Below are positions 3,780-62,037 of a DNA stretch of 64,000 nucleotides, one piece after another. Each line of letters opens with the position of its first letter. The stretch's first letter is position 1. This DNA is from an uncultured bacterium (GTDB lineage: Bacteria; Patescibacteriota; Microgenomatia; Levybacterales; UBA12049), in assembly GCA_963826535.1 (NCBI GenBank), contig CAWGXL010000010.1, positions 170,814 through 234,813 on the forward strand, read 5' to 3'. The position numbers and the translations under genes were made by a program. The notes under the pieces were generated by a model. It ran no database searches and was not told where the DNA came from. It saw only the letters and a program-made list of their open reading frames with translations.

Positions 3780-3784
3780 GCACA

Positions 3785-9240: not shown

Positions 9241-9252
9241 GTCCTATATTAT

Positions 9253-9906: not shown

Positions 9907-9915
9907 GAGATTGCT

Positions 9916-9960: not shown

Positions 9961-10004
9961 CTACCTCATTTTTCTGCTAAAATAGAACAAGTTGTTTAAA
10001 TCAT

Positions 10005-12031: not shown

Positions 12032-12032
12032 A

Positions 12033-13223: not shown

Positions 13224-13263
13224 AAAATTTAGTCTTTAGCAGTTAGGACTTAGAGATTAGTAA

Positions 13264-14673
13264 CTAATCCCTAACACCTTTATATTTAATCGCCCAAGCA
13301 ACACCCAAAAGAATCCAAAAAAGACTGGCAACCTTCGATGCTTCTAAAATATCAATAAACAAAGCAGTAATGGCCGCGTCAATTACAATTCCAATAATAA
13401 CTATATAAAATAATTTTGTAAAACGATCATTTGTATGTATTTCGGCAATAAAGCGACGCAATAAAACCCAAAATATTAGCATAATTGAAACAAAACCTAT
13501 CACCCCTGTTTCTCCTAACGCCCGAAGATAATCATTATCTGTAGCCAGGGAAATTGATGAATATCCTGTACCTAGAAACGGATTTTTGTACAATGCATGA
13601 AGAGCCCGCGGCCATTCATCAGTCAAGCGGATCGCGATAGAACGGCCAACTTCAAGTTCCGTATAATCTGTAGACTCGCCTGCCGCGATATCGCGGGGCA
13701 ATCCTTGTTTGGCTTTTGCTTCAGCAATAGCTTCTTCCGATTCCCTGGAAGGAACAATCAATTTATTCAGAATAATTGGTGTAGGGCTCGGTGTATAAGT
13801 CCTCTCAACCTTATTAAGTATATTAACATTCAATGTGGCGACTATCCGCCCGCGAAATTGTGGAACCGCTATAATCAGAAGAATACAGAATAAAATTAAG
13901 CCGATTATCATTGAGCGTTTTTTCAATAACAATAACACCAGGACCAGTCCTGCAAAAGTAGCAAAAAATGATATTCGGGAGGCAGCGTAGGTAAGTAAAA
14001 TAAAACTAGGAACACTTAGGAGAATAATACCCAATCTCATCCAGGCCCTTTTAACATAAAAAAAGACACCTGCCATTACAATAAGAAAATATGAAAGGTA
14101 AATAGATAAATCATAGTGTCCTGCAAATGTGGAATTTACACGACCGTTTGGGGATAATGTCGACAGTATTCCTGTTGAAAAATCCTTGTCAACTGTTGTA
14201 ACAACTTTAAAACCAAAAAATAATTGACCAAATCCATAAATCACAACTACAAGTGTCGCGAAAATAAATGCCCACAATAAATATTTTATATGTTGTCTAG
14301 ATGTAATACTTGTAGCAGCAATCCAGAACAGAAGCATAAATTCCAATCGCCTTAGCCAATGAAGAAAGCCTAAATGCGGCACGACAGACTGAGTAATAAG
14401 AAGCGCGCTAAGAAGAGAAACGAATCCAACAAACCAGAATAGTAAAAAAACTTGAAAGTAAAGATTTCTAAAAATTTCTCGTTTATATACCAAATGATAA
14501 ATAAACCACGAAAATATGGTAATAGCAATAAATAAATCCTCCAAACGTATTGCCACATAAGTCCCGGGAACATTAAAAAAAGGAAATTTAGGATATAAGG
14601 GAATAAAAATCACCAGTCCCATAAGGAGCCAAAATAAAATCTTTGGATAATAAATACCTATAGATTTGATCAT
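13264..14673 (-). CDS. Wzy_C-domain membrane protein (O-antigen ligase / O-oligosaccharyltransferase-like)
   Basis: 469 aa, about 11 TM. Motifs IRLEDLFIA and ATDNDYLRALGETGVIGF are shared with the paralog 51935..54691. Confidence 0.65.
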   Translation of the reverse strand: MIKSIGIYYPKILFWLLMGLVIFIPLYPKFPFFNVPGTYVAIRLEDLFIAITIFSWFIYHLVYKREIFRNLYFQVFLLFWFVGFVSLLSALLITQSVVPHLGFLHWLRRLEFMLLFWIAATSITSRQHIKYLLWAFIFATLVVVIYGFGQLFFGFKVVTTVDKDFSTGILSTLSPNGRVNSTFAGHYDLSIYLSYFLIVMAGVFFYVKRAWMRLGIILLSVPSFILLTYAASRISFFATFAGLVLVLLLLKKRSMIIGLILFCILLIIAVPQFRGRIVATLNVNILNKVERTYTPSPTPIILNKLIVPSRESEEAIAEAKAKQGLPRDIAAGESTDYTELEVGRSIAIRLTDEWPRALHALYKNPFLGTGYSSISLATDNDYLRALGETGVIGFVSIMLIFWVLLRRFIAEIHTNDRFTKLFYIVIIGIVIDAAITALFIDILEASKVASLFWILLGVAWAIKYKGVRD

Positions 14674-15564
14674 AATTCAGTGAGCACCTTTCTATATGTC
14701 TTTGTATAACTAGGTTTACCTAAGACATAAAAACCGACTATACGAAGGAGAATAGATAAATAGATAAAAACTTTAACAGTATACGCCGCAAAAGCCCCCT
14801 TATATTTTTTCTGCAAATAAAGAAGCTCCTTGAATTCTCCTAACCATTGGCGCAAGTTTGGATTATCTGAACTTGCCCCTCCAATATGCATTATTTGCGT
14901 TTTATCTGTCCACCCGACACTATAGCCTGCCTTTTTAGCCCGTATACAATAGTCAACATCCTCACAATACATGAATATATTTTCATCTAATAAACCAATC
15001 GACCAAAGAATTTTCCTTCTTAAACATAATCACACTGCCGCTAACCCAGCCGACTTTTCTTTCGTTCTTGTAATATGCGGCAGAGGTTTGATGAAATGAG
15101 GGAAGAGCATCTCTAAAAAATGGAAGGTCATCTATCCCAAAAAGCCAAACAAGAAGAGGAAGACCAAAAGGCAAATCCCCTGCATTTGGCTGAAGACTCC
15201 CGTCAGGATTTACAAGCTTACATGTTGCAATATCAAACCCAGTTTTCTCCATACTCTCAAGTAGGGTATCTAAACTACCCTCGCTGACTTCTGTATCAGA
15301 ATTTAGAAGTAAGTAGTAACTGGCGTCGGCTTTTTGTAAAGCTAAATTATTTCCACCGGCAAAACCTCTATTCTTGTCACTCTTAATAAGTTTTACATCT
15401 GAAAATTCCTTTCTTATCATTTCTGCTGACCCATCATTTGAGGCATTATCTACAACCCATGTTTCTTGACTGTGTTTCCATTTTTTTGTCTGAATACTTT
15501 TAAGACACTTCCTCAAAAGATCTTTCGTATTGTAATTAAGAATAATGATTGCAAGATTATTCAT
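14670..15564 (-). pseudogene. GT2 glycosyltransferase disrupted by a frameshift (two ORFs, 14983..15564 and 14670..14972)
   Basis: The N-terminal part (IIILNYNTKDLL..VVDNASNDGS) and the C-terminal part (YCEDVDYC..IMHIGGASS) align with the single intact paralog 56145..57074. Homology continues in another frame (GLLDENIFMYCED matches GWMDEDYFFYGED) around ~14995-15010. Confidence 0.6.
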
Positions 15565-16117
15565 GCTTTCTCCGTGTCCTTTTAAAAAGAATTACTTCAA
15601 AATAGATGCAAGTTAGAATTAAAAGATAAATAACTACTCTTCCGAAAGTAGATGATGGATAATATCGTATAGTTACCTCTGAATTATACTGTTTGCCGTC
15701 AAAGACTAAAGGCTCTGAATTCTTATCGAAAGCCTTACCATTCTCATTAAATGGTTCATAACCGCTTATTATAAGTGAATCTCTCAATATATAAAAATAC
15801 TCCTCGAGATACGTACTTTTTTGTTTTGGATCTAAATATGTAGACGCCAGATTCGGAGAATGATTTATACTGAGTGGTTTTATCAAACAGAAAGGGTTGA
15901 CGTATTTAAATAATTGACAGTTTAATCGCTCAAGCTCATTTTTATAAAAGTCAGTAACAAAATTTCTCCGGTTATTTGTATAATATTTACTTATATATTC
16001 TGACTGGCTTACTTTTACTGAATTAGGCAGAGAAGAAAGCATAGCAGGCTGAGAAACTGGCAAAATTACGTACCAAACTCCTAACAGAATTATAACTATT
16101 ACTATGAAGAATTTCAT
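15557..16117 (-). CDS. hypothetical membrane-anchored protein
   Basis: 186 aa with N- and C-terminal hydrophobic helices and no recognisable motifs. Confidence 0.4.
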   Translation of the reverse strand: MKFFIVIVIILLGVWYVILPVSQPAMLSSLPNSVKVSQSEYISKYYTNNRRNFVTDFYKNELERLNCQLFKYVNPFCLIKPLSINHSPNLASTYLDPKQKSTYLEEYFYILRDSLIISGYEPFNENGKAFDKNSEPLVFDGKQYNSEVTIRYYPSSTFGRVVIYLLILTCIYFEVILFKRTRRKHE

Positions 16118-16165
16118 TGCCTAGTTACAATTATACCTCATCACCAATCTCTAAGCACTAACCCC

Positions 16166-16194
16166 TTGAACAACAACAAAAATAACAATACAAT
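16166..16194 (+). promoter_or_regulatory. candidate promoter TTGAAC-N17-TACAAT upstream of wzm
   Basis: TTGAAC at 16166-16171 and TACAAT at 16189-16194. AAGGA lies 5 nt before the ATG at 16208. Confidence 0.4.
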
Positions 16195-16207
16195 ATAACT
16201 TAAGGAT

Positions 16208-16987
16208 ATGAAGGGGATTCTTAAATACAAAAAATATAAAGATTTATTCAAACAACTGACTCTCCGTGAAATAAAAAGTAAATACAAACAATCTGTATTG
16301 GGTTATGCGTGGGTACTGCTTGTCCCACTGCTTAATTTAATTGTTCTAAATATAGTATTCCAATATTTTTTCCGTGTGCCTACAGGAGATATTCCTTATC
16401 CCGTCTATCTTTTTGTCGCCCTGGTACCCTGGACATTTACAGCCAGTGCTATAGCGTCAGCCACGAGTAGTATCATAGCAAATAATTCGCTTATCACAAA
16501 AGTCTATTTCCCAAGAGAAATAATCCCTCTTTCTGTAATTGCTTCAAAGCTGGTAGATTTATTCCTTATGTGTCTTATCCTTATTGTTTTCTTGATTATT
16601 TACCAAATCCCATTACATTTAAGCATTCTCTATATACCTTTAATTTTCGCTATACAACTCATACTTATTACAGGTATATCGTTAATTCTTTCATCAATAA
16701 ATGTTTTCTTCAGGGATATTGAAAATATATTAGGTGTATTTTTAAGCACCTGGATGTATCTTACGCCCATTATATATCCGCCTGAACTTATACCCGCAAA
16801 TGTGAGGTTTATATTTGGACTGAATCCTATGGTTGGAATAATTAATGCCTATAGGAATACAATTTTATATGGTGTTCCGCCTCCTTGGATATCATTTTCT
16901 TTTTCAATTATCATTTCAATTGTTCTACTCATAATAGGTATATATATTTTTCGAAGACTATCAAGATCTTTTGCAGACGTTGTATAG
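16208..16987 (+). CDS. wzm: ABC-2 type polysaccharide/teichoic-acid exporter permease
   Basis: 259 aa. Typical Wzm/TagG N-terminus (LTLREIKSKYKQSVLGYAWVLLVPL) and 6 TM. Confidence 0.85.
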   Translation: MKGILKYKKYKDLFKQLTLREIKSKYKQSVLGYAWVLLVPLLNLIVLNIVFQYFFRVPTGDIPYPVYLFVALVPWTFTASAIASATSSIIANNSLITKVYFPREIIPLSVIASKLVDLFLMCLILIVFLIIYQIPLHLSILYIPLIFAIQLILITGISLILSSINVFFRDIENILGVFLSTWMYLTPIIYPPELIPANVRFIFGLNPMVGIINAYRNTILYGVPPPWISFSFSIIISIVLLIIGIYIFRRLSRSFADVV

Positions 16988-17016
16988 TTATAAAATTATA
17001 GGGTAATGTCTTAGAT

Positions 17017-17736
17017 ATGGATAATACAATAATTTCATTTAATAGTGTAAGCAAAAAGTTTCGTAGAGGCCAAAAGTTACTTTTAAAAGAAGCCTTAATC
17101 GATTTATTTTTACCCGACAAAAAGGAAGATTTTTGGGCTTTAAAAGATGTGAATTTTGAAATCAAAAGAGGTGAAACGGTCGGAATTATAGGAAATAACG
17201 GTTCAGGAAAAAGTACTATTTTGAAATTAATCGCTGGCGTGATGTTTCCTACAAAAGGGATGGTGACTGTAAAAGGACGAATAAGTCCGCTTATAGAACT
17301 TGGTGCAGGATTTCACCCGGAATTAACAGGTAGAGAAAATATTTATCTTAACGGAGCTATTTTAGGACTCACAAAAAAACAAATAGACGAACGGTTTGCA
17401 GATATTGTAGCCTTTTCTGAACTATCAGATTTTATTGACACACCTGTGAAGCACTACTCTTCCGGAATGTACATGCGGCTAGGATTTTCAGTTGCAGTAC
17501 ATACGGAACCGGAAATCTTACTTATTGATGAAATATTCGCAGTGGGGGATACAAGTTTCCAGGAAAAATGCTTCAGAAAAATGGAAGAATTTAAGAAAAA
17601 AAATGTTACAATTGTGCATGTCACCCACGATATGGCAACGGTTGAAAAATTCTGTGAAAAAGCAATATTTATCAATAAAGGCCATATAGAAGAAATCGGG
17701 AATGCCAGGCAAATTGTCAAAGAATATTTAAAATAA
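17017..17736 (+). CDS. wzt: ABC transporter ATP-binding protein of glycan exporter (no C-terminal carbohydrate-binding domain)
   Basis: Walker A GNNGSGKST, signature SGMYMRLGF and Walker B LLIDEIFAVGD. It is only 239 aa, i.e. the NBD alone. Confidence 0.9.
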   Translation: MDNTIISFNSVSKKFRRGQKLLLKEALIDLFLPDKKEDFWALKDVNFEIKRGETVGIIGNNGSGKSTILKLIAGVMFPTKGMVTVKGRISPLIELGAGFHPELTGRENIYLNGAILGLTKKQIDERFADIVAFSELSDFIDTPVKHYSSGMYMRLGFSVAVHTEPEILLIDEIFAVGDTSFQEKCFRKMEEFKKKNVTIVHVTHDMATVEKFCEKAIFINKGHIEEIGNARQIVKEYLK

Positions 17737-17930
17737 ATCTTTATACACTTCTAATTTAAAAATAAATTTTATAATACTAACATAACCCCGCTTAGCGAGA
17801 CGGCGCAGTATATATTTTTTTAGAAAAATCCCATATAATATAAAAATAATCTACAATGATCTAAAAAATAATTCAGTTTAAAGATATGTTCTCTTTGATA
17901 AGAGAGGGTGAATAAAACTAAGTCCATTAT

Positions 17931-20786
17931 ATGCAGATGCTACGGAAATTTAATAAGGAATTTGTATTCATCATAATAGCATTTTTACTTCCTTTACTTT
18001 TTTACATAACTATTTTTTTTGGTAATTCTTTCGGATTTGACTGTGCACCTGGAGTTATGGGCAATTATCCTCCTTATGGACAGAAATTAACTCCATCCAA
18101 TTTATATTGCGCGTCTATTCTGGATCCCGGAGCTTATACATGGCAATTTCCTGCAATGTGGGCTTCTGTAGCAAGACAATTTTTCCAAGGTAATTTTGCG
18201 ATTTGGTCACAAAACATAGGCATAGGGATTCCCCTTGCCGCGAATTTCCAATCAAACGCCTTTAATCCTATTTTATTACCTTTTATACTATTATTTAAGG
18301 CTTCGAATCTAAACCTTTTTTATCTTGATATATTCTTCGTTTTTCGCTACATGATTATGTCATTAGGCATGTATTTATTCCTGCGTAGTTTGAAACTGGA
18401 TAGATCTATTGCTTATATCGGTTCCTTAGCGTTTATATCAGCAGGCTACTTTATCAACATTCCAACCATGGCACATCACAACGTAGATATGTTACTGCCA
18501 CTTATCGCTTGGTCTATTAATAAATTCTACTTCACAAAGCAAACGAAATGGATAGGAATAAGTGCACTATTGCTTGGGTTATCAATGCTGGGAGGTATGC
18601 CTGAATCAAGTATTTTTATATTGTTTTTCTCTTTTTTATATGTAACATTTCTTTCTTTATTTTATATCCGGCAAAAGAAAATATTATTTTTGACTCTAGG
18701 ATGGTTAACTACTTTAATAGGTTTTCTGATAGGTGCAATACTTTATTTGCCCGGAATAGAGTATGTCCTGAATGGTGTAAATAATCACTCTCAGGGCTCA
18801 CAATATTATTTTGATGCTAGGAATATAATTTTATTCTTTTTACCTAAAATTTTTGGAGGTGCGCCTTTTTACTGGTCAGGATTTGCAGACAAAATTGATT
18901 TTAGTCCTCAATCATGGAATTATATAGGTTCAATAATTTTCTTTCTTTATCTGCTTAGTTTTACATATTTAAAAGATGTCTATAAGGAAATTAATAAAAA
19001 TAGAATTACAATCATTTTCTTTTTCTTTTTTATATTACTTGCAATATTACTTCTTCAACTCTATGGAATAATACACTTTTTTATATTTGAATATTTACCT
19101 GGCTTCAGGGAAACTCAGTTCACGAAATATAGTTCTGCGTTAATAAATTTTTCCATAATTACTTCCGTCAGCATATTTCTTCCAATTTTATTCAAGAAAA
19201 AATCCTTAAGAATCCTAATAGTTTATATCTTATTTGCTGCAATTTTATTGTTTATTAACTTCCACTATCAGGAGATTATCACGTCAAATTACTTTATTAA
19301 TAAATATATTGGTCTAGCTTCGAATATTTTCTTCTCATTAGTATTTATTTCAATAATAATATTCACTCTTTATAAATTTAATAATAAAAAAATAATATTA
19401 TGGATCATTTTCTTGTTACTTTTGATGGAATTTTTTATATATTTTCCGCGTTTCGGAGACAAGACAAGAAAAGATAGTTTCAGGCAACCACCAGGTATCA
19501 GTTTTCTGCAAAAGCAGAATTATCATGATTTTAGAATAATTGGATTGGACAACATACTTTTCCCCGACTTATCGGCAATATATGATTTAAATGATATGAG
19601 AATGCTTGATGCACTATGGATTGGTCGTTATTACGATTATATTAAAAACTTCTATGCCGTACCAGATGCTTATCGCATAACAGGTATCCAGGAAGTAAAC
19701 GCAACTCAGTCTGCCAATATAATAAACAACAATTTTTTTGATATGTTGTCCGTCAAATATCTATTAAGCTTTAATAATATCCAGGACACCATAATTGAAA
19801 ATGGATATATAACAGAAATGCTAAAACAAAATCCCAATGTGGAGAATTTTAATAAATCTATATTTACAATAAAAAAAGACTCGAAAAAAGTTTTATTCGA
19901 GCATGCTCCAAATAATATAAAAGCCGACTTGATCAAGCCACAAGATGCCCAATATTTAATACTTTTTCCGGCAATGAGTCAAGATTTATTCGGAAAAAAA
20001 GAAGGAGATGGAGTTGGATTTATTGCTAAAGCTTATGTCAATGGTTCACAAATAGATGCTCAAGAAATCTCAATTAACCCATCACACAATAAATCCGATG
20101 AAAAATGGTTCACTATGAAGCTAGGACCATTTCCGAATAGCGATGAATCCTATAAATTTAATTTAGAACTGATTACCGTCCAATTGCAGAATAATGCGTT
20201 TGACTGGGCAGGGTGGGGTGGATTCACATGGGATACGGAGCTGAATAAAGCAATAGATAAATATAAACTTGTATATGATAAGGATATGAAAATTTACGAA
20301 AACAAAGATTTCATTCCACGCTTAAGATTCATCAGTCAAACGATATGTGTGAATTCTAACAAGACAAAGCAAAATGAGAATGCCTATATTGTTGATCTAA
20401 TGAAACAGCATGCACAAGAAATCAAAAACCTGGCAATAGTTGAGTCCGATAATTGCCGAAATAGGACATACGACCCGGGGAAAGGAAATTTTTATTCACA
20501 ACAATTCCAGGATCAGAAAATTTCATTTACTTATTCATCCCAGGAAGAACAATATGCAATATTATCAGATTCGTATTATCCTGGATGGAATATCTATATT
20601 AAAGGTAAAAAAGGAGTCATTGACCCTGCAAACCTTGCCTTCAGAGGATTCAAGTTGCCACAAGGAGATAATGTAAAAGTTGAAATAAAGTACGAGCCGA
20701 TTAGTTTTCAAATTGGATTATTTATATCTCTATTTAGTTTAGGTATAATAATTATTATTATCTATAAAAATAAAAAAATTAAATGA
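17931..20786 (+). CDS. large polytopic membrane protein with extracytoplasmic C-terminal domain (YfhO-like, putative glycan-modifying GT-C)
   Basis: 951 aa, of which ~480 aa are TM-rich and followed by a soluble domain. The architecture resembles the YfhO family. Confidence 0.4.
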   Translation: MQMLRKFNKEFVFIIIAFLLPLLFYITIFFGNSFGFDCAPGVMGNYPPYGQKLTPSNLYCASILDPGAYTWQFPAMWASVARQFFQGNFAIWSQNIGIGIPLAANFQSNAFNPILLPFILLFKASNLNLFYLDIFFVFRYMIMSLGMYLFLRSLKLDRSIAYIGSLAFISAGYFINIPTMAHHNVDMLLPLIAWSINKFYFTKQTKWIGISALLLGLSMLGGMPESSIFILFFSFLYVTFLSLFYIRQKKILFLTLGWLTTLIGFLIGAILYLPGIEYVLNGVNNHSQGSQYYFDARNIILFFLPKIFGGAPFYWSGFADKIDFSPQSWNYIGSIIFFLYLLSFTYLKDVYKEINKNRITIIFFFFFILLAILLLQLYGIIHFFIFEYLPGFRETQFTKYSSALINFSIITSVSIFLPILFKKKSLRILIVYILFAAILLFINFHYQEIITSNYFINKYIGLASNIFFSLVFISIIIFTLYKFNNKKIILWIIFLLLLMEFFIYFPRFGDKTRKDSFRQPPGISFLQKQNYHDFRIIGLDNILFPDLSAIYDLNDMRMLDALWIGRYYDYIKNFYAVPDAYRITGIQEVNATQSANIINNNFFDMLSVKYLLSFNNIQDTIIENGYITEMLKQNPNVENFNKSIFTIKKDSKKVLFEHAPNNIKADLIKPQDAQYLILFPAMSQDLFGKKEGDGVGFIAKAYVNGSQIDAQEISINPSHNKSDEKWFTMKLGPFPNSDESYKFNLELITVQLQNNAFDWAGWGGFTWDTELNKAIDKYKLVYDKDMKIYENKDFIPRLRFISQTICVNSNKTKQNENAYIVDLMKQHAQEIKNLAIVESDNCRNRTYDPGKGNFYSQQFQDQKISFTYSSQEEQYAILSDSYYPGWNIYIKGKKGVIDPANLAFRGFKLPQGDNVKVEIKYEPISFQIGLFISLFSLGIIIIIIYKNKKIK

Positions 20787-21769
20787 TCAATCAAAAAATA
20801 AAAAAAACCGACTCAAAAAAAATAAAAGAAATGTGGGGCTCACATGAGCATACAGTTGAAAGATATGGAAAAGGGTTTCATTGGGTAGAATCACCTGTAA
20901 TAATGGAAGCAATAAATCGAAAAATTAGCGGTGATAGTAGCATAGATTGGCTTTCCTATGTTATAGCAAAATACTTATCACATAAAAAAAGCGACTATAT
21001 TGGTTTGTCTTTAGGATGTGGAACGGGAATACTGGAAAGACAGGTACAGCAAAAAAATTTATTTAAACGAATTGAAGCATTCGATTTTGCAGATGAAGTA
21101 ATTAGGCAGGCAAAAGAATCCGCGCATAAAGAAGGATTGAAAATCAGTTATCATGTTGCGGATTTAAATAAATTAAAATTAAAGAAGAATTATTATCATT
21201 TTATATTCGCTAACTCTGTTCTGCATCATTTAAAGAATTTGGAATTTGTATATAATCAAATTAGTCAAGCTCTTGTAGATGGCGGTATAGTTTTCATAAA
21301 TGAATATGTTGGCCCTTCACAATTTCAATATACGGATAAACAAACTGAAATAATAAATAACATCCTAGATATTTTGCCTAAACAGTATAAGAAAAGGGTT
21401 ACTGATCATAAAAGCTTAAAGCCTCATTTTTACCCTGCTAGCATAGATTATATGAACGATCATGATCCCTCTGAAGCAGTTAGATCAAAAGAAATAATTC
21501 CTTTATTGAAAAAAAAATTCGATATTATTGAACATAAAGATTTTGGTGGATCTTTGCTCCATATGCTAATGCAAGATATTGTAGGAAATTTTAACTCTAA
21601 AAACGAAAAAGATATAGTTTTACTTAAATTATTAATTTATATAGAAGAATATTTAATTAAATCGAAAGTAATTGAAAGTGATTTCTCATTTCTGGTTGTA
21701 CGTAAAAGGACTAAACTACGTTCATCCATTTCAAAGTTTCAGTCAATCCTGAAGAAAGTGAAGTCTTAG
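20783..21769 (+). CDS. class I SAM-dependent methyltransferase
   Basis: ATGA overlap with the upstream gene. Motif I LSLGCGTGILE, and acidic residue FDFADE. Confidence 0.75.
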   Translation: MINQKIKKTDSKKIKEMWGSHEHTVERYGKGFHWVESPVIMEAINRKISGDSSIDWLSYVIAKYLSHKKSDYIGLSLGCGTGILERQVQQKNLFKRIEAFDFADEVIRQAKESAHKEGLKISYHVADLNKLKLKKNYYHFIFANSVLHHLKNLEFVYNQISQALVDGGIVFINEYVGPSQFQYTDKQTEIINNILDILPKQYKKRVTDHKSLKPHFYPASIDYMNDHDPSEAVRSKEIIPLLKKKFDIIEHKDFGGSLLHMLMQDIVGNFNSKNEKDIVLLKLLIYIEEYLIKSKVIESDFSFLVVRKRTKLRSSISKFQSILKKVKS

Positions 21770-22658
21770 GTTTCCAGCTAAACTCATTTTTAAAACGGGA
21801 GATGTCCAAAATTACTTTATCAATATCGAAGATGCGTTTTTCTTTATATAGTACCTTAACTTTGCTATGAGAAATATCTTTAATTAATGCCCAAACGTCT
21901 TTAATTTTTACACCCTTACCTGACCCAATATTATAAATTTCATGCTTATTCTTTCTATTAAATGAGATGGCTATTGCATCGATCAAATCGTCGATATAGA
22001 TAAAATCCCGGATTAACTTTCCGTAATTAAAAAGTGTCGGTGAGGTATTATTCTGTATATGATGCACTATTGTTGGTATTAAGGCAAAGCCCTCTTTCGG
22101 CAGTTGATTCGGCCCGTAAGGATTACTAATGCGATATATAAGACACTCAACCTGGTATTGATGAGCATAATAACGAAGGAAATATTCTATTGTCAATTTT
22201 CCTATTGCATACGGTGAACTGGGTTTTGGGACTGCCTCTTCGCATATTGGCAAAACTTGATTCTCACCATATATTCCGCCACCGGAGGAAGGAAAAATAA
22301 TTTTCTTAACTCTTTTCTCGCAGGCAATTTTAATAAAGTTTTCATGTAAAAAAATATCTTCTTGAATTACCCTTAGGGGGGATTGCATTGACGTGAACGG
22401 TACTGTTGAAGAAATTAAATCAAAAACAATATCCTTCGGCTGAAGTATTTCATTAATCAATTTAGAATTGGAAAAATCTTCAATTATTATTTGAATCTTA
22501 TTTTTATATTTATTCCTTAATTGATCTAAATTGCTTTTATTTTCATGTGTTAACCTGGTAAATATAGTAACATGAAAATCATCCTGAAGTAGCTTTTTTG
22601 ATAAATGACTTCCGATGAATCCTGCTCCTCCAAATAAAACAATTCTAGATTTTTTCAT
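21711..22658 (-). CDS. NAD-dependent epimerase/dehydratase (extended SDR)
   Basis: N-terminus RIVLFGGAGFIGSHL and a YAIGK-type YxxxK motif. Confidence 0.75.
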   Translation of the reverse strand: MKKSRIVLFGGAGFIGSHLSKKLLQDDFHVTIFTRLTHENKSNLDQLRNKYKNKIQIIIEDFSNSKLINEILQPKDIVFDLISSTVPFTSMQSPLRVIQEDIFLHENFIKIACEKRVKKIIFPSSGGGIYGENQVLPICEEAVPKPSSPYAIGKLTIEYFLRYYAHQYQVECLIYRISNPYGPNQLPKEGFALIPTIVHHIQNNTSPTLFNYGKLIRDFIYIDDLIDAIAISFNRKNKHEIYNIGSGKGVKIKDVWALIKDISHSKVKVLYKEKRIFDIDKVILDISRFKNEFSWKPKTSLSSGLTETLKWMNVV

Positions 22659-22664
22659 ACAGTT

Positions 22665-24003
22665 TTAATTTAATAAATTCTTATAAACCGTTACTAACTC
22701 CTTAACATTTTCTTCAATAGATATTTGTTGTGGGAAATATTGTTCCATTTCTTGCATAATTTTTGGATTTTGAATAAAACGCTTGATTTTGCTTGCTAAA
22801 TCAGCACTATTTTCGTTCTCAAAAAGCATCCCTGTTTTATTTTCAATAATAATTTCAGGTAAGCTTCCCAAATTTGTTGCAATGACCGGAGTTTTAGTCA
22901 ATAAAGCATTACGTACTACTAAAGGAGCATTCTTCGAACCATCTTGAAGGTACAATTAGTATATCTATTTCTTTATATACATTAGCTATTTTTTGGGAAT
23001 CAAATGTTCCGCATAACTGAACGTTTTTTAATCCTTTCAAAAGTTTGTAAATCTTTATTGAATATTTGGGATCTGTGTTCAAATCTCCGTATATTTTCAA
23101 CACGATTTTATTGCTATTTAATTCCTTCCATGCTTTTAGCAGTATATCCAGACCTTTTGAATTAATAATACTGCCTATAAATGCAAAACGGATTTTATCT
23201 GCAGCTTTTTTATGAAAATTATTAAAAAGCGATACGTTAACTCCATGAGAAGAAACTATAACCTTTTTTGCGTAAAAACCCCATTTACAAAAATCTCTAT
23301 ATAAAAATAGTGTTGGAAAAATAGCTAAATCCAGTAATGCTAAATTCTTTCGGATAAGATAATTTCTTTTTTTTATCATCGCAACATACTGTGTTTTTTC
23401 TAAATGATATATGGCATTACCAATAAATCTATACAATATTTTCTTAGTAAGATATTTTATATTCATTTTGAATGGATCATCTGTATTAAATCTATTATGG
23501 TTAAAAAATCCTATTGTAAAGAGATTTGCAAGATCCTCTGCCAGATTTTCATCTGCAGGATTAATTAATAATGCATTTTTACTTGTAATCCTATTAAATA
23601 ACATAGTTTGGAGCCAGAAATCATTAACGGTCATAATCTGGGGGATGCCTGAAACATATCCAGCTTGAATTAGATTAATTGATAAATGCATTAAGTGTTG
23701 ATAATGGATAATATCAGGCTTAAATTCTTGTAATAATACCTTGAAACCAGGTATAACTTTATCATCGTTGTATGTTTTCTCGAAATTTTTTATTTTTTTA
23801 ATATTTTTTCTTAAGCGGTAAACGGTTATTCCGTAATATTCATCGGCCTTAATCTCATAATCACCATTTTTATCTAAGGGTTCAGTAGTAAAAATAACTA
23901 CTTCATGATTTTTGCTAAGCGTTTTGGCTAATTCATATGTATATACTTCAGTTCCGCCTACATAATTTGGCAGGAAAGTGTGGGTTACTAATAAAATTTT
24001 CAT
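22665..24003 (-). pseudogene. GT4 glycosyltransferase split by a frameshift (ORFs 22909..24003 and 22665..22955)
   Basis: The N-terminal ORF carries the GT4 N-domain (MKILLVTHTFLPNYVGGTEVY) and ends at VPSRWFEE. The downstream ORF, in another frame, carries the C-terminal motif (TKTPVIATNLGSLPEIIIENKTGMLF). Confidence 0.55.
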
Positions 24004-25514
24004 ACGTCTTTTGATAATATAGAATCTAAATTATTTTCTAATTCCTCCCTTTTAGGATTCTTCTTATCCAAAGTTAAAAAAACAAGATTATTGCTAACTA
24101 TTATAGCCATTAACTTCTCAAAAAATGGAATGATCTGTTTATCAGAATAAATTTGCCCTTTCATTAGCTTAGTCGCATCATTAAATACATTATAGACTTG
24201 TGAATATGTTATTTGCATATATTTATTTGTTAAATCTGTCCGCGATATAAGTATTATTTTTAATAAATGAGAAATATTTTCTAAATTTTGTAAAAATTCA
24301 GATTTATATTTATTTGACACATTATTATTAATTTTAATCTTAATAAGTTCGTTATACTCGGGTATATTTTTTGAAACGGGGTGCAATTGAAAATGTTGCT
24401 GTAATAGAAGATAGAGAATATAAATAGTTTGGAGTAAATCTTGGGGATTTGTAGAAATAGTATTTACTTTCTCTCTAAACAATTTATATACTGTTTTTGT
24501 ATCTACATAATATCTTTTAAAAAAATAAGTAATAGAGCGCGTATGTGAATGAATTACACCACTCTGCCCTGTAAATCCGATCTTATAACCCTGCTTTAAT
24601 GCCCTTATTGCAAATTCAATATCTTCTGCAAATTCAATTTTTCGATAACCTCCCAATTTTATAAAATTATCTCTTTTAACACAAGAACAAACATCATCGA
24701 ACAGAGATATTTTTCTCTTTAATATAAAAGGCAGTGAATAAAAATTAATATTTTTAGGAAGTTTGGATATATAATTTGAATTATTAAGATATAAAGCTGA
24801 ATTATGATGTATCATTTGCCATTTAGCGAATAAATCAGCATCCGGGTAAGGTGTCTGTTTTGTAGAAACTCCTATAATGGAATCTTCTGAAGACAGAAGA
24901 GTTAATAAATTAACATATGTATAATTATCAATAGGTAATGCATCCTGAACTGCAAAAATAATATATTTACCTTTTGCAACCTCAGCTCCTATATTTCGAG
25001 TTAAACCATGATTAAAATCTTTTTTATCAATCGAAATCACTTTTGCATGATAACGTCTGGCAATGGATACTGTTTTATCAATTGATCCTGAATCAATTAT
25101 TATAATTTCTGGGCTTTGAATTCCTTCTTGCATGCGAATTGCTGTAAAAAGATTCTCAAGGTATTCTGCTCCGTTTAATGTGGGGATAACTATACTAACA
25201 TCATCAAAAAATTTAGTACTTTTTGTGAAAGTAATATTTTTAATATATTTCTGTTCATTTTTATTACTCCGGGTAAGCCACTGAATTCTATTTTTTACAT
25301 TATATTTAATAGTCTTTTTAGCATATTGGTTTAATGTTGCGTATATTTGCCAGAGCATATATGCTTTAGAGGAAAAAATTATATTAAGTATTTTTTCAAA
25401 ATATTTTTTTTCTTCATGTGTTTCATACAATTCCATACGTAATACTTCCATTTGTGCTTCTAAGAGGTTTTTATCGAAGGAGTTAATTGTATTTTTTTTA
25501 GTTTTTCGAAGCAT
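24000..25514 (-). CDS. GT2 glycosyltransferase with N-terminal coiled-coil segment
   Basis: SIVIPTLNGAEYL..IIIDSGSIDKT GT-A motifs. The N-terminal coiled coil and a KAYMLWQ motif resemble the linker of the neighbouring 937-aa fusion. Confidence 0.7.
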   Translation of the reverse strand: MLRKTKKNTINSFDKNLLEAQMEVLRMELYETHEEKKYFEKILNIIFSSKAYMLWQIYATLNQYAKKTIKYNVKNRIQWLTRSNKNEQKYIKNITFTKSTKFFDDVSIVIPTLNGAEYLENLFTAIRMQEGIQSPEIIIIDSGSIDKTVSIARRYHAKVISIDKKDFNHGLTRNIGAEVAKGKYIIFAVQDALPIDNYTYVNLLTLLSSEDSIIGVSTKQTPYPDADLFAKWQMIHHNSALYLNNSNYISKLPKNINFYSLPFILKRKISLFDDVCSCVKRDNFIKLGGYRKIEFAEDIEFAIRALKQGYKIGFTGQSGVIHSHTRSITYFFKRYYVDTKTVYKLFREKVNTISTNPQDLLQTIYILYLLLQQHFQLHPVSKNIPEYNELIKIKINNNVSNKYKSEFLQNLENISHLLKIILISRTDLTNKYMQITYSQVYNVFNDATKLMKGQIYSDKQIIPFFEKLMAIIVSNNLVFLTLDKKNPKREELENNLDSILSKDV

Positions 25515-25523
25515 ACTTCTATT

Positions 25524-28337
25524 TTAAAAGATATCAATAGTATTCCTATTAAAGTAAGGATCATTATAAATCAGATGTTTCCATTTTTTATGCAATAATT
25601 CTAGCTCTTGCTTAAAAAATAGCATATTTCTATCAGAATCTCCCGGCCGCTTCATTGTAGCAGATTCATGATGAATAAGAACTCCATGGGAAGTATATAC
25701 ATTTTGATAGCCTTTCACTAATAATTTCAGGCAAAAATCAATATCGTTAAACGCAAGTTTATAAGACGAATTCATTCCCCCTACCGCCTTAAACTTTTTA
25801 CTATCAATCATCAAACAAGCTCCTGTTACAGCTATATAATTAGCTGTACCATAAATGCCACCATTTAATTGAGCATAATCTACATTATTTTGATAATTTT
25901 TGTAAATATGCGACGGTAAAATAAGTCCATCCAAAGTAAACTTAGGATTAAAGACTATTCCTGCATGTTGAATAGTATTATCGGGATATAATAGTTTTGC
26001 TCCGACAGCGCCAACTTCTTTTCTTTGCGCGTGTTCTAATAATGCTTCAATCCAGGTAGTTGTAACGATCTCAGTATCATTATTCAGGAAAAGAAAGTAT
26101 TCCCCGTTGCTATTTTTACTGCCATAGTTACAAACGGAAGAGAAGTTAAAGGAATTTTTCCAATGTATTACTTTTGTTTGAGCATACCTATTTTGAACAT
26201 TTTCATATAATTTCCAAATGTCTTTATTCTTAGATCCGGTATCAACTATTATTAACTCGTAGTTTTTATATGTAGATTTTTCAATTATTGATTCTAAACA
26301 TGGTTTAATTAATTCATACTGATCTTTTGTTGGTATAATAATTGACACTAGCGGGTTACCAATAATATTATACTTTACTCTCCATAAACCTAGGTATTCC
26401 GTAGATATTACTTTACCTTTTAATTTCCTATTAGCTAAATCACTTTCAAGCACTTTCTTTTGATTATTGATAGCATATTTTTTAATTGTTTGAATATGCT
26501 CAGGGGAAGATGTTGATAGCGACGATTTTCTCCACGAATAAAGTATACTTGGGATATGGATAATTTTATTTTTTACATTTTTCTTTTCAGTTTCTAAAGT
26601 AGCCCGTAAAAATAAATCCCAATCTTGTGCCCCTTCATATCCTTTACGAAAGGCACCAACTTTATGTATTAAAGATTTTTTTATGACAGCAAAATGAGTG
26701 ATGTAATTTAACGAACGCAGGAAGTCCGGACTCCAATCTGGTTTAAAAAAGGGATCAATATGAGTAAACCCATCATAATCAAGCTTATCCTCATCGCTAT
26801 AAATAAATTCAACATCTCTATTCTTATTGATCACTTTGGCTACTTCATAAAGGCAGTTTGGCCAAAGTATATCATCATGATCTAGAAATCCAATAAATTC
26901 CCCCTTAGCCAAACTTAAAGCAGAATTGGATGCCTCGCAAATATGACCATTTTTCTCTCCTAAAATATACTTTATTCTTTTATCTTTTTCAGCATACTCT
27001 TTTATTTTTTCTCTTACAGCATTATCATATGAAGCATCATCTGCAATACATAATTCCCAATTATTATATGTTTGGTTGATTAATGATTCTATACACTGAG
27101 CCAAAAAATTTATCGGTGTATTAAACACAGGGGTAATAAGAGATATTTTGGGACTGTATTTTAAATTACCATTATCATTTTGTTGTCGTGATATCTCTTC
27201 CTCCGAAGGATAATGTTCCATAAACCAATTTTGGTAGCGCTGATTAATATTCAGTACATTATTCTTGACGACTTCCATGTTCGCTAATCTTTTCTCAATT
27301 CCTCTCGGTCCTTCTTGAAAGAAAATCCTTCCTATTTTAATAATTTTTCTAGGATCATGGAGAGCCTTTTTCGCGATCTTTTTTGTTTTATTAAACCCCT
27401 GCCAAAGTTTAAATGTTTTCGCGGAAATAATATTATCTAAAATCGATTGTAACTGTAGTTTTACTTCTGTCAATGTCTTGACTTCATTTCTTAGCTTTTT
27501 TATATCCTCTTCATTATTTTTGTTTAAATTAATTAATTGACTTACGCTCTGTAGATTTTTGTCCATACCTTGAATTGCTTGGTTTCTCAGCATTTCATAT
27601 TCGTATGAATAACGCATCTGGAGATTTTTTTCTAATTTTAAAAATTCATTAGCCTGCCTATTTTTATTTTTAAATAAAACTCCTAAACCGAATGAGTGAA
27701 AAAATTCAATTGTTTTATACTTAGACTTTAATTCACCCCAAAGTTTATATACTCCAAAATCATCTTCTATTACTTTTATGTCATGAAATAAAATTATTCC
27801 TTGATCGCTTACTTTGTTTCGCCACCTTTCAAAATCATGTTTAACCACGTCATAAGTGTGGAACCCATCGATATGTAAAACATCTATAACTTTATCCGAA
27901 AATTCACTTAAGGCTTCATCAAAAGTTTTTCTTAGTAATTTAATTTTTTGATCTTTATAATACTTATTTTTTATTTCATTTACTTCTTCAAAAACTTCAT
28001 TGCCATAAAAACCACTATGTTCATCGCCCTTCCAATTGTCTATAGCGTAGAGCTTAGTATTTATGCCTCCGTCTTTAACAGCTTGGCAAAATGAGAAAAA
28101 TGAGGTTCCTCTATGAGTACCTATCTCAACAACTATATTTGGTTTTAAATTTCGTATAAGTTCATATGCAAAATGTCTATGTCCATACCAAGGCCAACCT
28201 AAGTCCTCAAATTTTTCGACATATTCAAATTTTGGATTAAATATTCGCCATTTTTTATACTTTCTATTAATTGGAAGTTCGCTCATCGGGCTATATCCAA
28301 TATACTTGTTTTTTTTCTTCTGTGTTGTATCATTCAT
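25524..28337 (-). CDS. multidomain methyltransferase - coiled-coil - GT2 - GT2 glycan polymerising/terminating enzyme (WsaE-like)
   Basis: 937 aa. N-terminal class I MTase fold (IVEIGTHRGTSFF..AIDNWKGDEHSG..VLHIDGFHTYD), a ~120-aa coiled-coil region, and two GT2 domains (ISLITPVFNTP..CIADDAS and VSIIIPTKDQYEL..IIVDTGS). Confidence 0.7.
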   Translation of the reverse strand: MNDTTQKKKNKYIGYSPMSELPINRKYKKWRIFNPKFEYVEKFEDLGWPWYGHRHFAYELIRNLKPNIVVEIGTHRGTSFFSFCQAVKDGGINTKLYAIDNWKGDEHSGFYGNEVFEEVNEIKNKYYKDQKIKLLRKTFDEALSEFSDKVIDVLHIDGFHTYDVVKHDFERWRNKVSDQGIILFHDIKVIEDDFGVYKLWGELKSKYKTIEFFHSFGLGVLFKNKNRQANEFLKLEKNLQMRYSYEYEMLRNQAIQGMDKNLQSVSQLINLNKNNEEDIKKLRNEVKTLTEVKLQLQSILDNIISAKTFKLWQGFNKTKKIAKKALHDPRKIIKIGRIFFQEGPRGIEKRLANMEVVKNNVLNINQRYQNWFMEHYPSEEEISRQQNDNGNLKYSPKISLITPVFNTPINFLAQCIESLINQTYNNWELCIADDASYDNAVREKIKEYAEKDKRIKYILGEKNGHICEASNSALSLAKGEFIGFLDHDDILWPNCLYEVAKVINKNRDVEFIYSDEDKLDYDGFTHIDPFFKPDWSPDFLRSLNYITHFAVIKKSLIHKVGAFRKGYEGAQDWDLFLRATLETEKKNVKNKIIHIPSILYSWRKSSLSTSSPEHIQTIKKYAINNQKKVLESDLANRKLKGKVISTEYLGLWRVKYNIIGNPLVSIIIPTKDQYELIKPCLESIIEKSTYKNYELIIVDTGSKNKDIWKLYENVQNRYAQTKVIHWKNSFNFSSVCNYGSKNSNGEYFLFLNNDTEIVTTTWIEALLEHAQRKEVGAVGAKLLYPDNTIQHAGIVFNPKFTLDGLILPSHIYKNYQNNVDYAQLNGGIYGTANYIAVTGACLMIDSKKFKAVGGMNSSYKLAFNDIDFCLKLLVKGYQNVYTSHGVLIHHESATMKRPGDSDRNMLFFKQELELLHKKWKHLIYNDPYFNRNTIDIF

Positions 28338-28616: not shown

Positions 28617-29348
28617 ATGAATAAAGAAGCTTCCTATACAATCTCTGTCCTAATACCTGCCTACAACGAAGAAAAAAAGATCGAAAAAGATATCCGTGAA
28701 ATATACAAATTTTTAGATAAATATAAAATAATAGGTGAAGTTATTATCTCAACTGACGGGGTAACCGATAATACAATTAATATTGTAAAAAGTTTACAAA
28801 ACGAATTTAAGACTTTAAAGCTTCTTGCCGAAAAAATAAGAATTGGGAAAGGAGCAGCGATAAAAAAAGGAGTTAAAATTGCGTCAGGCAAATACATTAT
28901 GTTTGCTGATGCAGGTCATTGTGTGCCCTATAGATTTATCAACGAAGGCATTGCTAAAATTGACGAAGGATATGATGTCGCACTTGCATCAAGGGCATCA
29001 ATAAAAAGCATCATTACAAAACCTCAACCTTTTTACCGTCAAATTGGATCAAAAATATTTGGCATTATCGTTAGAGACATAATGCACACTCCAAAAAATA
29101 TCAAGGACACACAGTGCGGATTTAAAATATATAAAAATAAAGTAGCAAAAAAATTATTCAATGAATTAAAGACAAAAAGTTTTATGTTTGATATTGAATT
29201 AATTCTAAGGGCAAAAAAAGAAAATTACAAAATGACACAGTTTCCTGTGCAATGGAGAAATGATAGTGATACTAAATTTAATCCTATAAGCGGCTCAGTG
29301 AGAAATATAAAAGATTTATTTAAAATTAAATTTATATATAAATTATAA
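28617..29348 (+). CDS. polyprenol-phosphate sugar synthase (GT2, Dpm1/ArnC/GtrB-like)
   Basis: 243 aa. ISVLIPAYNEEKKI and a DxD motif (FADAG). Confidence 0.7.
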   Translation: MNKEASYTISVLIPAYNEEKKIEKDIREIYKFLDKYKIIGEVIISTDGVTDNTINIVKSLQNEFKTLKLLAEKIRIGKGAAIKKGVKIASGKYIMFADAGHCVPYRFINEGIAKIDEGYDVALASRASIKSIITKPQPFYRQIGSKIFGIIVRDIMHTPKNIKDTQCGFKIYKNKVAKKLFNELKTKSFMFDIELILRAKKENYKMTQFPVQWRNDSDTKFNPISGSVRNIKDLFKIKFIYKL

Positions 29349-61374: not shown

Positions 61375-62037
61375 ATGTACACTAAAATTAAAAAAAAATA
61401 TCCTTACAAGTTCTTAAAAAGAACAATAGATGTTGTTTTCACCATAATTCTACTGATCATTTTCTCACCTGTTATAGTCGCAGTCGCTCTAGCTATCAAA
61501 ATAAATTCACCGGGCCCTGTTTTTGCCGATACGCCTGAAAGAGTAGGAAAAAATGGAAAGAGATTTAAGATGTACAAATTCCGGTCTATGATACAAAATG
61601 CTCACCAAATGTTACGGGAAGACCCAAAGTACTTGGAGCTATTTAACAAATACAAAAAAAGTAGTTACAAGTTAAAAGATGATCCAAGAATTACCTCTGT
61701 AGGCCGCTTTATTCGCAAGCACTCTCTTGATGAAATGCCTCAATTTTTTAATGTTTTGAAGGGGGAAATGAGTATTGTCGGTCCAAGAGCTTATTATCCG
61801 GATGAACTTGAAGAACAACAAAAAAAATATCCGTATACCAAAAAAGCTGTAAAAATTGTGATATCAGTAAAACCTGGCATAACCGGTCTCTGGCAAGTCT
61901 CAGGGAGAAGCGATATCAATTTTGATAAGCGCATTCAAATGGATGCGGAATATGTAACAAGACGATCAATAAGATACGATCTATGGCTTATTTTAAAATC
62001 TCCCTGGGCTATGATCTCCGGCAAAGGAGCCCTATAA
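61375..62037 (+). CDS. initiating polyprenyl-phosphate phosphoglycosyltransferase (Bac_transf, PglC/WbaP C-domain type)
   Basis: Single N-terminal TM, then PGPVFADTPERVGKNGKRFKMYKFRSM ... MSIVGPRAY ... PGITGLWQVSGRSD. Confidence 0.85.
   Translation: MYTKIKKKYPYKFLKRTIDVVFTIILLIIFSPVIVAVALAIKINSPGPVFADTPERVGKNGKRFKMYKFRSMIQNAHQMLREDPKYLELFNKYKKSSYKLKDDPRITSVGRFIRKHSLDEMPQFFNVLKGEMSIVGPRAYYPDELEEQQKKYPYTKKAVKIVISVKPGITGLWQVSGRSDINFDKRIQMDAEYVTRRSIRYDLWLILKSPWAMISGKGAL

Follow-up and report, generated by a model that had tools for sequence, protein, structure and literature searches.

The window analysed here is a 64-kb stretch of DNA from an uncultured bacterium, and its segment 16208-28337 probably constitutes a surface-glycan assembly locus dependent on an ATP-binding cassette (ABC) transporter, at the core of which lies a protein of 937 amino acids (aa) proposed to act as terminator, ruler and polymerase of the chain. 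The open reading frames (ORFs) of the window were scanned with Pfam and NCBIfam profiles and compared with the genomic neighbourhoods of relatives, which were taken with a radius of ±10 kb and are denoted by L numbers. Coding is dense across 12-30 kb, and the entire window can be described as a glycan island, harboring many genes for glycosyltransferases (GTs) of families 2 and 4 (GT2, GT4), several nucleotide-sugar enzymes and at least six GT-C-like membrane proteins. The features of the locus are the following (nt, nucleotides; TM, transmembrane segments):

16208..16987, forward strand: wzm, ABC-2 permease, 259 aa; Pfam ABC2_membrane, E 3e-19; nearest NCBIfam models galactan Wzm and KpsM; 81% identity to the wzm of L085.
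17017..17736, forward strand: wzt, nucleotide-binding subunit, 239 aa, nucleotide-binding domain (NBD) only; Pfam ABC_tran only; nearest NCBIfam models TagH and galactan Wzt.
17931..20786, forward strand: YfhO-like GT-C membrane glycosyltransferase, 951 aa, about 10 TM, first cassette gene; Pfam YfhO, 30.3 bits against a cut-off of 28.5.
20783..21769, forward strand: second S-adenosylmethionine (SAM) methyltransferase, 328 aa; Pfam Methyltransf_11; its start overlaps the YfhO stop.
21711..22658, reverse strand: short-chain dehydrogenase/reductase-type nucleotide-sugar epimerase/dehydratase, 315 aa; Pfam Epimerase, E 2e-41; every NCBIfam match under its cut-off.
22665..24003, reverse strand: GT4, split by an apparent frameshift into 22909-24003 and 22665-22955, which match positions 9-103 and 104-168 of the Glycos_transf_1 profile.
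24000..25514, reverse strand: GT2, 504 aa; Pfam GT2 at aa 107-239; short helical N-terminus at aa 1-58 (nt 25341-25514) ending in SSKAYMLWQ.
25524..28337, reverse strand: 937-aa methyltransferase/coiled-coil/GT2/GT2 protein, the proposed terminator, ruler and polymerase (Pfam, AlphaFold2 model, heptad score).
27675..28229, reverse strand: its methyltransferase domain, aa 37-221; Methyltransf_24; predicted local distance difference test (pLDDT) of the block mostly >80, with many values >90.
27168..27662, reverse strand: its helical linker, aa 226-390, from the AlphaFold2 helices; heptad core at aa 258-313 (nt 27399-27566) and cationic amphipathic segment at aa 315-349 (nt 27291-27395).
26433..27149, reverse strand: its first GT-A (GT2) domain, aa 397-635; Pfam and AlphaFold2.
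25563..26351, reverse strand: its second GT-A (GT2) domain, aa 663-925; Pfam and AlphaFold2.

The convergent ORFs of the second methyltransferase and the epimerase share their 3'-terminal 59 nt (21711-21769).

The 937-aa protein carries a Methyltransf_24 domain (aa 70-187, E 8.5e-26) and, twice, a Glycos_transf_2 domain (aa 399-560 and about 664-891, E 1.7e-51). Its AlphaFold2 model, based on 37 full-length homologs and calculated for the monomer (pLDDT 82.8), has revealed a methyltransferase fold at aa 37-221, two GT-A domains extending from aa 397 to about 635 and from 663 to about 925, and long helices in the linker at aa 226-270, 275-306, 328-374 and 378-390. In the PDB, the fold search ranks the dual-GT-A polymerases K4CP and PmHS2 first (E ~1e-21), and the GT half matches by sequence the chondroitin polymerase K4CP (E 5.7e-28). 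Among the 37 homologs, residues E70, G72, G76, D99, D156, H184 and D185 of the methyltransferase, D432, D485, D487, D488, D514 and D516 of the first GT-A domain and N751 and N752 of the second are invariant, and D753 is nearly so; these positions include SAM/metal-binding-type residues and the Asp-rich motifs of GT-A enzymes. Both catalytic ends are conserved in this set, while the linker that joins them ranges from 145 to 280 aa. In the window protein, heptad periodicity of the linker peaks at aa 258-313, above that of more than 99.9% of shuffled sequences, with a second stretch at aa 347-375 (more than 99%), and aa 315-349 reach a helical hydrophobic moment of 0.74, the maximum for the protein (mean 0.25, standard deviation 0.12), together with a net charge of +4 to +7. 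A first-pass annotation of this DNA had assigned a methyltransferase and two GT2 domains to ORF 25524..28337, which the Pfam matches and the predicted folds confirm, and it had named profile searches and structure prediction as the way to check the protein; these returned the methyltransferase fold, the linker helices and both GT2 domains. The coiled coil of ~120 aa that it described is indeed present, but is better defined as a helical linker of ~165 aa with a clear heptad core of ~56 aa.

The permease and its cognate NBD are encoded together beside the cytoplasmic GTs, and the ABC2_membrane and ABC_tran matches agree with the Wzm/Wzt exporter annotated at 16208..17736, so that export of the glycan through an ABC transporter, as predicted from these genes, is well supported. 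With 239 aa, an ABC_tran domain alone and Wzt_C absent from the Pfam result, Wzt is of the NBD-only kind that had been reported for it. The absence of the C-terminal domain is considered genuine, because only 195 nt follow before the next ORF and the Wzt proteins of close relatives have the same length (240-244 aa); a truncation artefact was rejected on these grounds. Short Wzt proteins recur beside the GT2-GT2 family to which the polymerase half belongs, where, in 80 loci, Wzt length is bimodal (16 short, of 240-265 aa, and 29 long, of 379-591 aa). Among the 120 homologs closest to the window Wzt (62-91% identity), Wzt_C is present in seven and the others measure 230-268 aa; the named organisms among them are Daviesbacteria, Microgenomates and Patescibacteria. 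The earlier remark that an NBD-only Wzt departs from the Escherichia coli O9a model stands, yet it concerns a recurrent variant that is not unique to this window.

Comparison with the relatives brings in further features at both sides of the locus and at the far end of the window:

12033..16117, reverse strand: four-gene operon, divergent from wzm and conserved with its gene order in L085, L086, L088, L089 and L090.
15557-16117, reverse strand: operon gene for a 186-aa protein with two predicted TM.
14983-15564 and 14670-14972, reverse strand: operon gene for a GT2, split by an apparent frameshift into ORFs of 193 and 100 aa; intact in relatives (294-302 aa).
13264-14673, reverse strand: operon gene for a Wzy_C/WaaL-fold protein, 469 aa; Pfam Wzy_C and fold match to WaaL.
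12033-13223, reverse strand: operon gene for a GT4, 81% identical to its L085 counterpart.
28617..29348, forward strand: GT2, 243 aa, far conserved flank of the variable cassette; 74% identical to the L085 GT2 located one gene past wzt.
61375..62037, forward strand: small monotopic phosphoglycosyl transferase (Bac_transf), 220 aa, single TM; 211 bits.

L085, whose Wzy_C protein is 69% identical to that of the operon, matches the window gene for gene over 36-17736 (81% identity for wzm, 80% for wzt, 81% for the GT4 and 54-81% along the Wzy_C operon), and synteny resumes at the GT2 of 28617-29348. Everything from the YfhO-like gene through the 937-aa ORF is missing from L085, which has other GTs and methyltransferases in place of 17931-28337. 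The operon and the wzm-wzt pair are both kept in L088, L089 and L090 as well, with a gene set after wzt that differs in each of them, and the GC content is 0.28-0.31 over 18-34 kb versus ~0.35 in the flanks. Synteny and composition thus identify 17931-28337 as a strain-variable, low-GC cassette placed at a conserved exporter, an arrangement that resembles O-antigen and slg loci. This cassette character, the YfhO-like GT-C and second methyltransferase (17931-21769) and the split GT4 and GT2 genes had not been mentioned in the first-pass annotation.

The cassette of L089 has revealed how the 937-aa protein is put together. After wzt, L089 encodes a Methyltransf_24-coil protein of 310 aa, a GT4, a GT2-GT2 protein of 597 aa and a GT2 of 488 aa, of which the first is 49% identical to aa 28-315 of the window protein, the third 58% identical to its aa 331-930, and the last 45% identical to the 504-aa GT2 of the window. 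Since its modules occur as separate proteins in so close a relative, the window protein is best regarded as a fusion of modules. Four proteins of the two loci share a coil-end motif of the form S-x-K-x-F/Y-K/M-LWQ, namely the 937-aa protein at aa 300-313 (IISAKTFKLWQGF), the L089 methyltransferase-coil protein (IKSAKFFKLWQRY), the L089 GT4 (IKSTKFFKLWQGY) and the 504-aa GT2 of the window at its N-terminus (IFSSKAYMLWQIY). The strict pattern is found in 4 of the 37 full-length homologs, and a looser basic helix with S-x-x-W-[KR] follows the coil in nearly all 37. At L089:7238-9389, the standalone methyltransferase and the next GT4 both end in a coiled coil plus a K-S-[AT]-K-F-F-K-L-W-Q tail, which suggests that this common tail may be a docking element shared across one assembly line. 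By analogy with the amphipathic helix and recruitment site of WbdD (PMC11231755), the S-x-x-W-[KR] element could be the docking or membrane site at which the enzymes of the pathway assemble around the ruler base.

The GT2-GT2 module is widely distributed. A scan of species-representative genomes yielded at least 598 confirmed relatives, spanning CPR (candidate phyla radiation) bacteria, Firmicutes, Verrucomicrobia, Chlorobi, cyanobacteria and archaea; those with the full-length architecture come from Dojkabacteria, Prosthecochloris, Opitutales, Chthoniobacterales, a gammaproteobacterium and a thaumarchaeon, and those of the GT2-GT2 form from Saccharibacteria, Clostridia, Enterococcus, Paenibacillus, cyanobacteria, Chloroflexota and several archaea. 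Dozens of full-length relatives with 40-47% identity and the identical Pfam set came out of a word-indexed protein search, along with versions that consist of GT2-GT2 only, carry another methyltransferase, or are fused to WsaF-type or GT4 domains. Of 80 loci inspected, 43-50 have a wzm or wzt gene no more than 10 kb away. One relative is an Enterococcus faecalis protein with 41-42% identity to the GT2-GT2 part, encoded downstream of wzm and a 401-aa wzt, probably in the epa locus; EF2180/EF2181 of the enterococcal polysaccharide antigen (EPA) are reported homologs of the WsaE C-terminus (PMC7188991). The family is found alike in genomes bearing lipopolysaccharide (LPS), in Gram-positive genomes and in archaeal ones, and because of this wide distribution, with wzm/wzt near about half of its members, the polymerase appears generic to ABC-dependent glycans and silent on the final acceptor. 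Among 80 multi-TM neighbours of the family, Pfam recognises 15 DUF2142, seven YfhO, five PMT_2 and only three Wzy_C proteins, and YfhO homologs adjoin wzm/wzt and GT2-GT2 in Saccharibacteria L019 and L022 and in the archaeon L061. A Methyltransf_11/23 gene recurs in the related clusters L081-L085 and L088, and rmlABCD-like genes are present in L082. As separate observations, homologs of GT2-GT2 with 40-44% identity occur in archaeal metagenome-assembled genomes (MAGs; L011, L015, L041, L046 and L061) from Thaumarchaeota/Nitrosopumilaceae, Methanoperedens, Methanosarcinales and Bathyarchaeia, two of them with wzm/wzt and L061 with its YfhO-like neighbour, and STT3/AglB domains were detected in one of the multi-TM neighbours scanned.

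A close published parallel to this architecture is WsaE of Geobacillus stearothermophilus NRS 2004/3a, which joins an N-terminal methyltransferase and two rhamnosyltransferase domains in one soluble protein, and elongates and caps the S-layer glycan (PMC2943079, PMC9415975). The likeness to WsaE that had been proposed for the 937-aa protein fits this description (PMC2943079), and it extends to the context, with wzm/wzt close by, a WbaP-type phosphoglycosyl transferase and a Wzy_C protein in the same genome region, and, in L083, a full-length relative adjoined by a WsaF-family glycosyltransferase (WsaF_N/WsaF_C). At the level of sequence the link to WsaE is indirect, running through the E. faecalis homolog, the reported kinship of the EPA glycosyltransferases with WsaE and this WsaF-family neighbour. 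The window differs from the Geobacillus case in that rml genes and WsaF were not found in it, in that the 937-aa gene stands on the opposite strand to wzm/wzt inside a variable cassette, and in its Wzt without the C-terminal domain; in the Geobacillus model, Wzt is proposed to bind the methylated chain end (PMC2943079). A second parallel is provided by the ruler systems of Klebsiella pneumoniae and E. coli. ORF6 of K. pneumoniae O7 contains a methyltransferase(-kinase), a coiled coil and two GT2 domains, variants of which are O12 WbbB and O9a WbdD/WbdA; the coiled coil, called 'a characteristic marker', acts in them as a molecular ruler, and such a strategy is described as widespread (PMC11231755). 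The coiled-coil ruler analogy already drawn for the window agrees with this account of WbdD, WbbB and O7 ORF6 (PMC11231755), whose systems combine a terminator with a coiled coil and two GT modules for polymerisation, as does the 937-aa protein; with O7 ORF6 it also shares a methyltransferase as terminator and GT modules of the GT2 type. The fused form of the window and the split form of L089 mirror O12/O7 versus O9a, and the amphipathic segment at the foot of the coil, a candidate for membrane binding, recalls that of WbdD. Unlike these systems, however, the window protein has no kinase or carbohydrate-binding module (CBM) inserted between methyltransferase and coil, its methyltransferase is of the Methyltransf_24 (CmcI-like) type, its coil is shorter, and the CBM that gates export there is missing from its Wzt. 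The host also differs, being probably a CPR bacterium, monoderm and devoid of LPS, to judge from the named homologs of the window proteins, which belong to Daviesbacteria, Microgenomates, Patescibacteria, Dojkabacteria and Moranbacteria.

Further parallels concern the polymerase half. The EPA (EF2180/EF2181), rhamnose-glucose polysaccharide (RGP) and group A carbohydrate (GAC) systems have homologous GT2-GT2 proteins, Wzm/Wzt export and extracellular GT-C decoration (PMC7188991, PMC8035078); their proteins lack the methyltransferase-coil module, their Wzt has ~400 aa, and they rely on initiation by a TagO-type enzyme, on rml genes and on LytR-CpsA-Psr (LCP) ligases, none of which were found in the window. 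K4CP and PmHS2 are likewise single polypeptides with a dual GT-A core that alternate two transferase activities, but they are only 15-18% identical, act on glycosaminoglycan substrates and have neither terminator nor coiled coil.

The model that best accommodates these data proposes that the two GT-A domains would extend a polyprenyl-diphosphate-linked chain in the cytoplasm, while the cationic amphipathic segment after the coiled coil may anchor the foot of the protein to the membrane. Held at the far end of the coil, the N-terminal O-methyltransferase would cap the non-reducing end once the chain reaches far enough, and the coil would thereby set chain length. The 504-aa GT2 and the GT4 could provide further linkages or the adaptor, Wzm/Wzt would export the chain without a cap-reading module, and the YfhO-like GT-C would probably add, after export, side-chain sugars taken from a polyprenyl-phosphate sugar. 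YfhO is reported to function in the extracellular glycosylation of teichoic acids (PMC5836110). The architecture itself is already known from WsaE, K. pneumoniae O7 ORF6 and O12 WbbB, and does not represent a new category of system.

Several observations weigh against this model. The pLDDT falls to 36-60 over aa 250-350 of the monomer model, an outcome expected because the coil was modelled as a monomer, and strong heptads are confined to about 56 residues of the linker. The window Wzt lacks the cap-reading module on which the models for E. coli O9a and K. pneumoniae O12 rely, and 8 of the 12 loci that contain a Methyltransf_24 terminator candidate have a long Wzt, of CBM-bearing size (L004, L005, L006, L007, L010, L037, L083 and L084, with Wzt_C confirmed in L083 and L084); the short ones are those of the window, L081, L089 and the archaeal L011. 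The GT4 of the cassette is broken by an apparent frameshift, and the sole initiating transferase of the window lies 33 kb away inside another conserved module. No rmlC- or rmlD-type genes were found in the 64 kb, where dTDP_sugar_isom and RmlD-type profiles gave no match above cut-off, although such genes may be located in another part of the genome, and a scan for promoters and terminators returned nothing above shuffled sequences (80 promoter-like sites versus 80 expected, and 3 terminators versus 5.4 expected).

The final acceptor of the glycan may be protein, peptidoglycan or lipid. The Wzy_C match at 13264-14673 reaches 36 bits against a Pfam cut-off of 31.7, and the only strong PDB fold match of the 469-aa model is WaaL (7TPG, Foldseek E 9.4e-7); domain and fold are those of the superfamily to which the ligase WaaL and the O-oligosaccharyltransferases PglL/PilO/WsaB belong. 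At the sequence level the relationship is remote: no PDB chain was matched by either Wzy_C protein or by a profile of 32 sequences, and the hhalign alignment of this profile with E. coli WaaL is very weak (probability 0.15), with a hint of R233 aligning to R215. The family has invariant Arg residues, and D379-N380-X9-G390-XX-G393 is invariant in the 32 sequences, which include L083 and the 918-aa paralog of the window. The motif of WaaL and PglL is H[NSQ]X9GXX[GTY], and its His is essential and catalytic. Direct sequence reading indicates that E. coli WaaL has H-N-X9-G-XX-G with identical spacing, that Asp replaces this His in the window family, and that the Wzy_C proteins of Paenibacillus L064 and of L004 retain it. 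More than 2600 homologs of the family exist, the top 120 of which are 43-75% identical over their full length, with Daviesbacteria as named members.

The second of the two Wzy_C proteins reported in the first-pass annotation, encoded by the 918-aa ORF 51935-54691, scores 28.9 bits and stays below the Pfam cut-off that the first exceeds, but it is homologous in its N-terminal ~510 aa, which are 30-32% identical to the L085 and L086 Wzy_C proteins (E 1e-52 to 1e-61). It has about 18 TM, its N-terminal ~510 aa forming a paralog of the 469-aa protein, and its C-terminal 429 aa (about 8 TM) have no Pfam match. The Wzy_C operon divergently adjoins wzm in the window, L085, L088, L089 and L090. In L086 it continues into a GT4, a GT2, a Bac_transf and a DUF4012 gene, in synteny with 49415-63991 of the window, which likewise has one small Bac_transf transferase followed by a DUF4012 gene, and wzm/wzt were not found within 10 kb of this L086 operon. 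The Bac_transf protein (61375..62037), annotated earlier as a PglC-type initiating transferase and borne out as such by its score and single TM, is the sole initiating enzyme found in the window and belongs to this syntenic Wzy_C/DUF4012 module. A Polysacc_synt (Wzx) gene stands directly beside the operon in L088 and L089, while Pfam scans gave no match to Wzx, LCP, Wzt_C, TPR or SLH for any ORF of the window. A Wzx hidden among unannotated multi-TM ORFs was also sought, and neither permissive Pfam searches nor tblastn with the L088 and L089 Wzx proteins found one.

It has been argued, by analogy with the proposal made for WsaB, that the exported glycan is moved en bloc to Ser, Thr or Tyr of a secreted or S-layer-like protein, with the Wzy_C protein of 13264-14673 as O-oligosaccharyltransferase. 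This appears unlikely, even if the gene content parallels the slg cluster (WbaP-type transferase, Wzm/Wzt, WsaE-like enzyme and Wzy_C), the operon is so regularly divergent beside wzm, and the Wzy_C family, with its WaaL fold, is unusually conserved and has its named members in Daviesbacteria, a group without LPS. Three other loci pair the polymerase family with Wzy_C (L083, L004 and Paenibacillus L064), but they are three of 83, and phmmer with the window Wzy_C proteins found no matching neighbours in the 80 loci. The substitution of Asp for the motif His, the Wzx neighbour in two relatives and the separation of the L086 operon from wzm/wzt also speak against it, as does the lack, in the window ORFs scanned with Pfam, of an SLH or S-layer domain and of the TPR domain or partner that is a feature of WsfB, PglL and WsaA. 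The target candidate put forward in the first-pass annotation, ORF 7148-8842 (564 aa), does have a signal-peptide-like N-terminus and internal repeats, in line with the secreted repeat protein described there, and a strong Shine-Dalgarno sequence, but it has no Pfam match and is not conserved in the syntenic L085. The complete protein O-glycosylation pathway suggested in that annotation is hence not upheld: its glycan assembly and export half is well supported, and its protein-acceptor half is possible, with no support beyond gene content. A cell-wall polysaccharide is at least as likely as a protein-linked glycan. Here the product would be of the rhamnan type known from Gram-positive bacteria (RGP/GAC, EPA, the lactococcal dual-chain system), with an ABC-exported backbone, GT-C decoration outside and a peptidoglycan ligase encoded elsewhere, and the Wzy_C operon would make a second, Wzx/Wzy-type chain, in accordance with the Wzx genes that adjoin it. 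The E. faecalis homolog downstream of wzm/wzt and the EPA model (PMC7188991), the dominance of GT-C proteins among the membrane neighbours of the polymerase family, the YfhO-like gene directly after wzt, and the at least six GT-C-like proteins, GtrB-like GT2 (48471-49418) and 4-TM protein (36065-36430) of the window all favor this possibility, which is nevertheless somewhat doubtful, as LCP (LytR_cpsA_psr), a TagO/WecA-type initiator (Glycos_transf_4), rml and Wzx were not found within the 64-kb window, and high Wzy_C conservation is atypical of serotype-specific polymerases. The Wzy_C protein may act as a ligase, a polymerase or an O-oligosaccharyltransferase. A bolder proposal, which seems quite unlikely, makes the conserved Asp-variant WaaL-like enzyme, kept next to a conserved Wzm/Wzt without CBM while the neighbouring GT cassette is exchanged among strains, a general ligase that would put strain-variable, methyl-capped glycans on surface proteins, in an S-layer-like O-glycosylation of Microgenomates-type CPR where the cap would serve length control only and not export gating.

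Two further alternatives leave the acceptor aside. The N-terminal methyltransferase might modify internal residues of every repeat, the linker merely serving to oligomerise or tether the protein, and a Wzt without cap-binding module and a second methyltransferase in the cassette would be in line with this. It is nonetheless improbable, given that the catalytic module at the far end of the coil is a terminator in every characterised case (PMC11231755), that the linker varies nearly two-fold in length between conserved catalytic ends, and that the methyltransferase-coil is an autonomous protein in L089. The other alternative is that the locus is partly decayed. Three genes of the window consist each of two ORFs in different frames, i.e., the GT2 at 14670-15564 (break at ~14975), the GT4 at 22665-24003 (~22930) and the DUF4012 gene at 62074-63991 (~63150-63250). 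Intact counterparts exist in relatives for the GT2 and for the DUF4012 protein (626 aa), and the splitting of the GT4 is deduced from its two ORFs matching consecutive parts of Glycos_transf_1. Assembly errors, pseudogenes or phase variation could be the cause, and because of these three split genes a complete pathway is not assertable for this assembly. That they are true pseudogenes, and that the full glycan is not made in this strain, has little to recommend it, since all other genes are intact, including the 937-aa ORF with its invariant catalytic residues, and three breaks of the reading frame, each at a single site, are accounted for just as well by errors of assembly or consensus in a MAG.

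If the 937-aa protein does work as terminator, ruler and polymerase, the locus extends the strategy of Klebsiella, E. coli and Geobacillus to the CPR, in the form of a strain-variable cassette. Envelope chemistry is almost unstudied in CPR/Patescibacteria, whose cells live attached to hosts, and surface glycans are likely to matter in them for attachment and for phage and host recognition. The coexistence of fused and split machines, and of exporters with and without a cap-binding module, offers a natural comparison, from which one could learn whether capping can be uncoupled from export gating.

Other regions of the window present features of their own. ORF 7148-8842 contains two repeats of ~95 aa (GN.G...V.I.TGDA.A.VS..N.AGLN), a low-complexity middle rich in K, D, H and Y, and a third repeat fragment at its C-terminus. 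The run at 41585-46671 resembles the GDP-D-glycero-D-manno-heptose pathway, with transaldolase/FSA-like, SIS (weak GmhA), GmhB-like phosphatase, 253-aa nucleotidyltransferase, EamA transporter and HddA-like GHMP kinase genes, all of their NCBIfam scores being below the curated cut-offs. GT-C-like proteins (PMT, PMT_2, YfhO or TMEM260-like) are unusually dense, at 1261-2907, 5323-6948, 17931-20786, 30336-31784 and 54688-56148; the GT2 of 48471-49418 has two C-terminal TM, as in GtrB/DPM synthases, and the 4-TM protein of 36065-36430 is EamA-like and has 121 aa. From their predicted domains, these GT-C proteins, the GtrB-like GT2 and the 4-TM protein appear to be parts of several three-component extracytoplasmic glycosylation systems.

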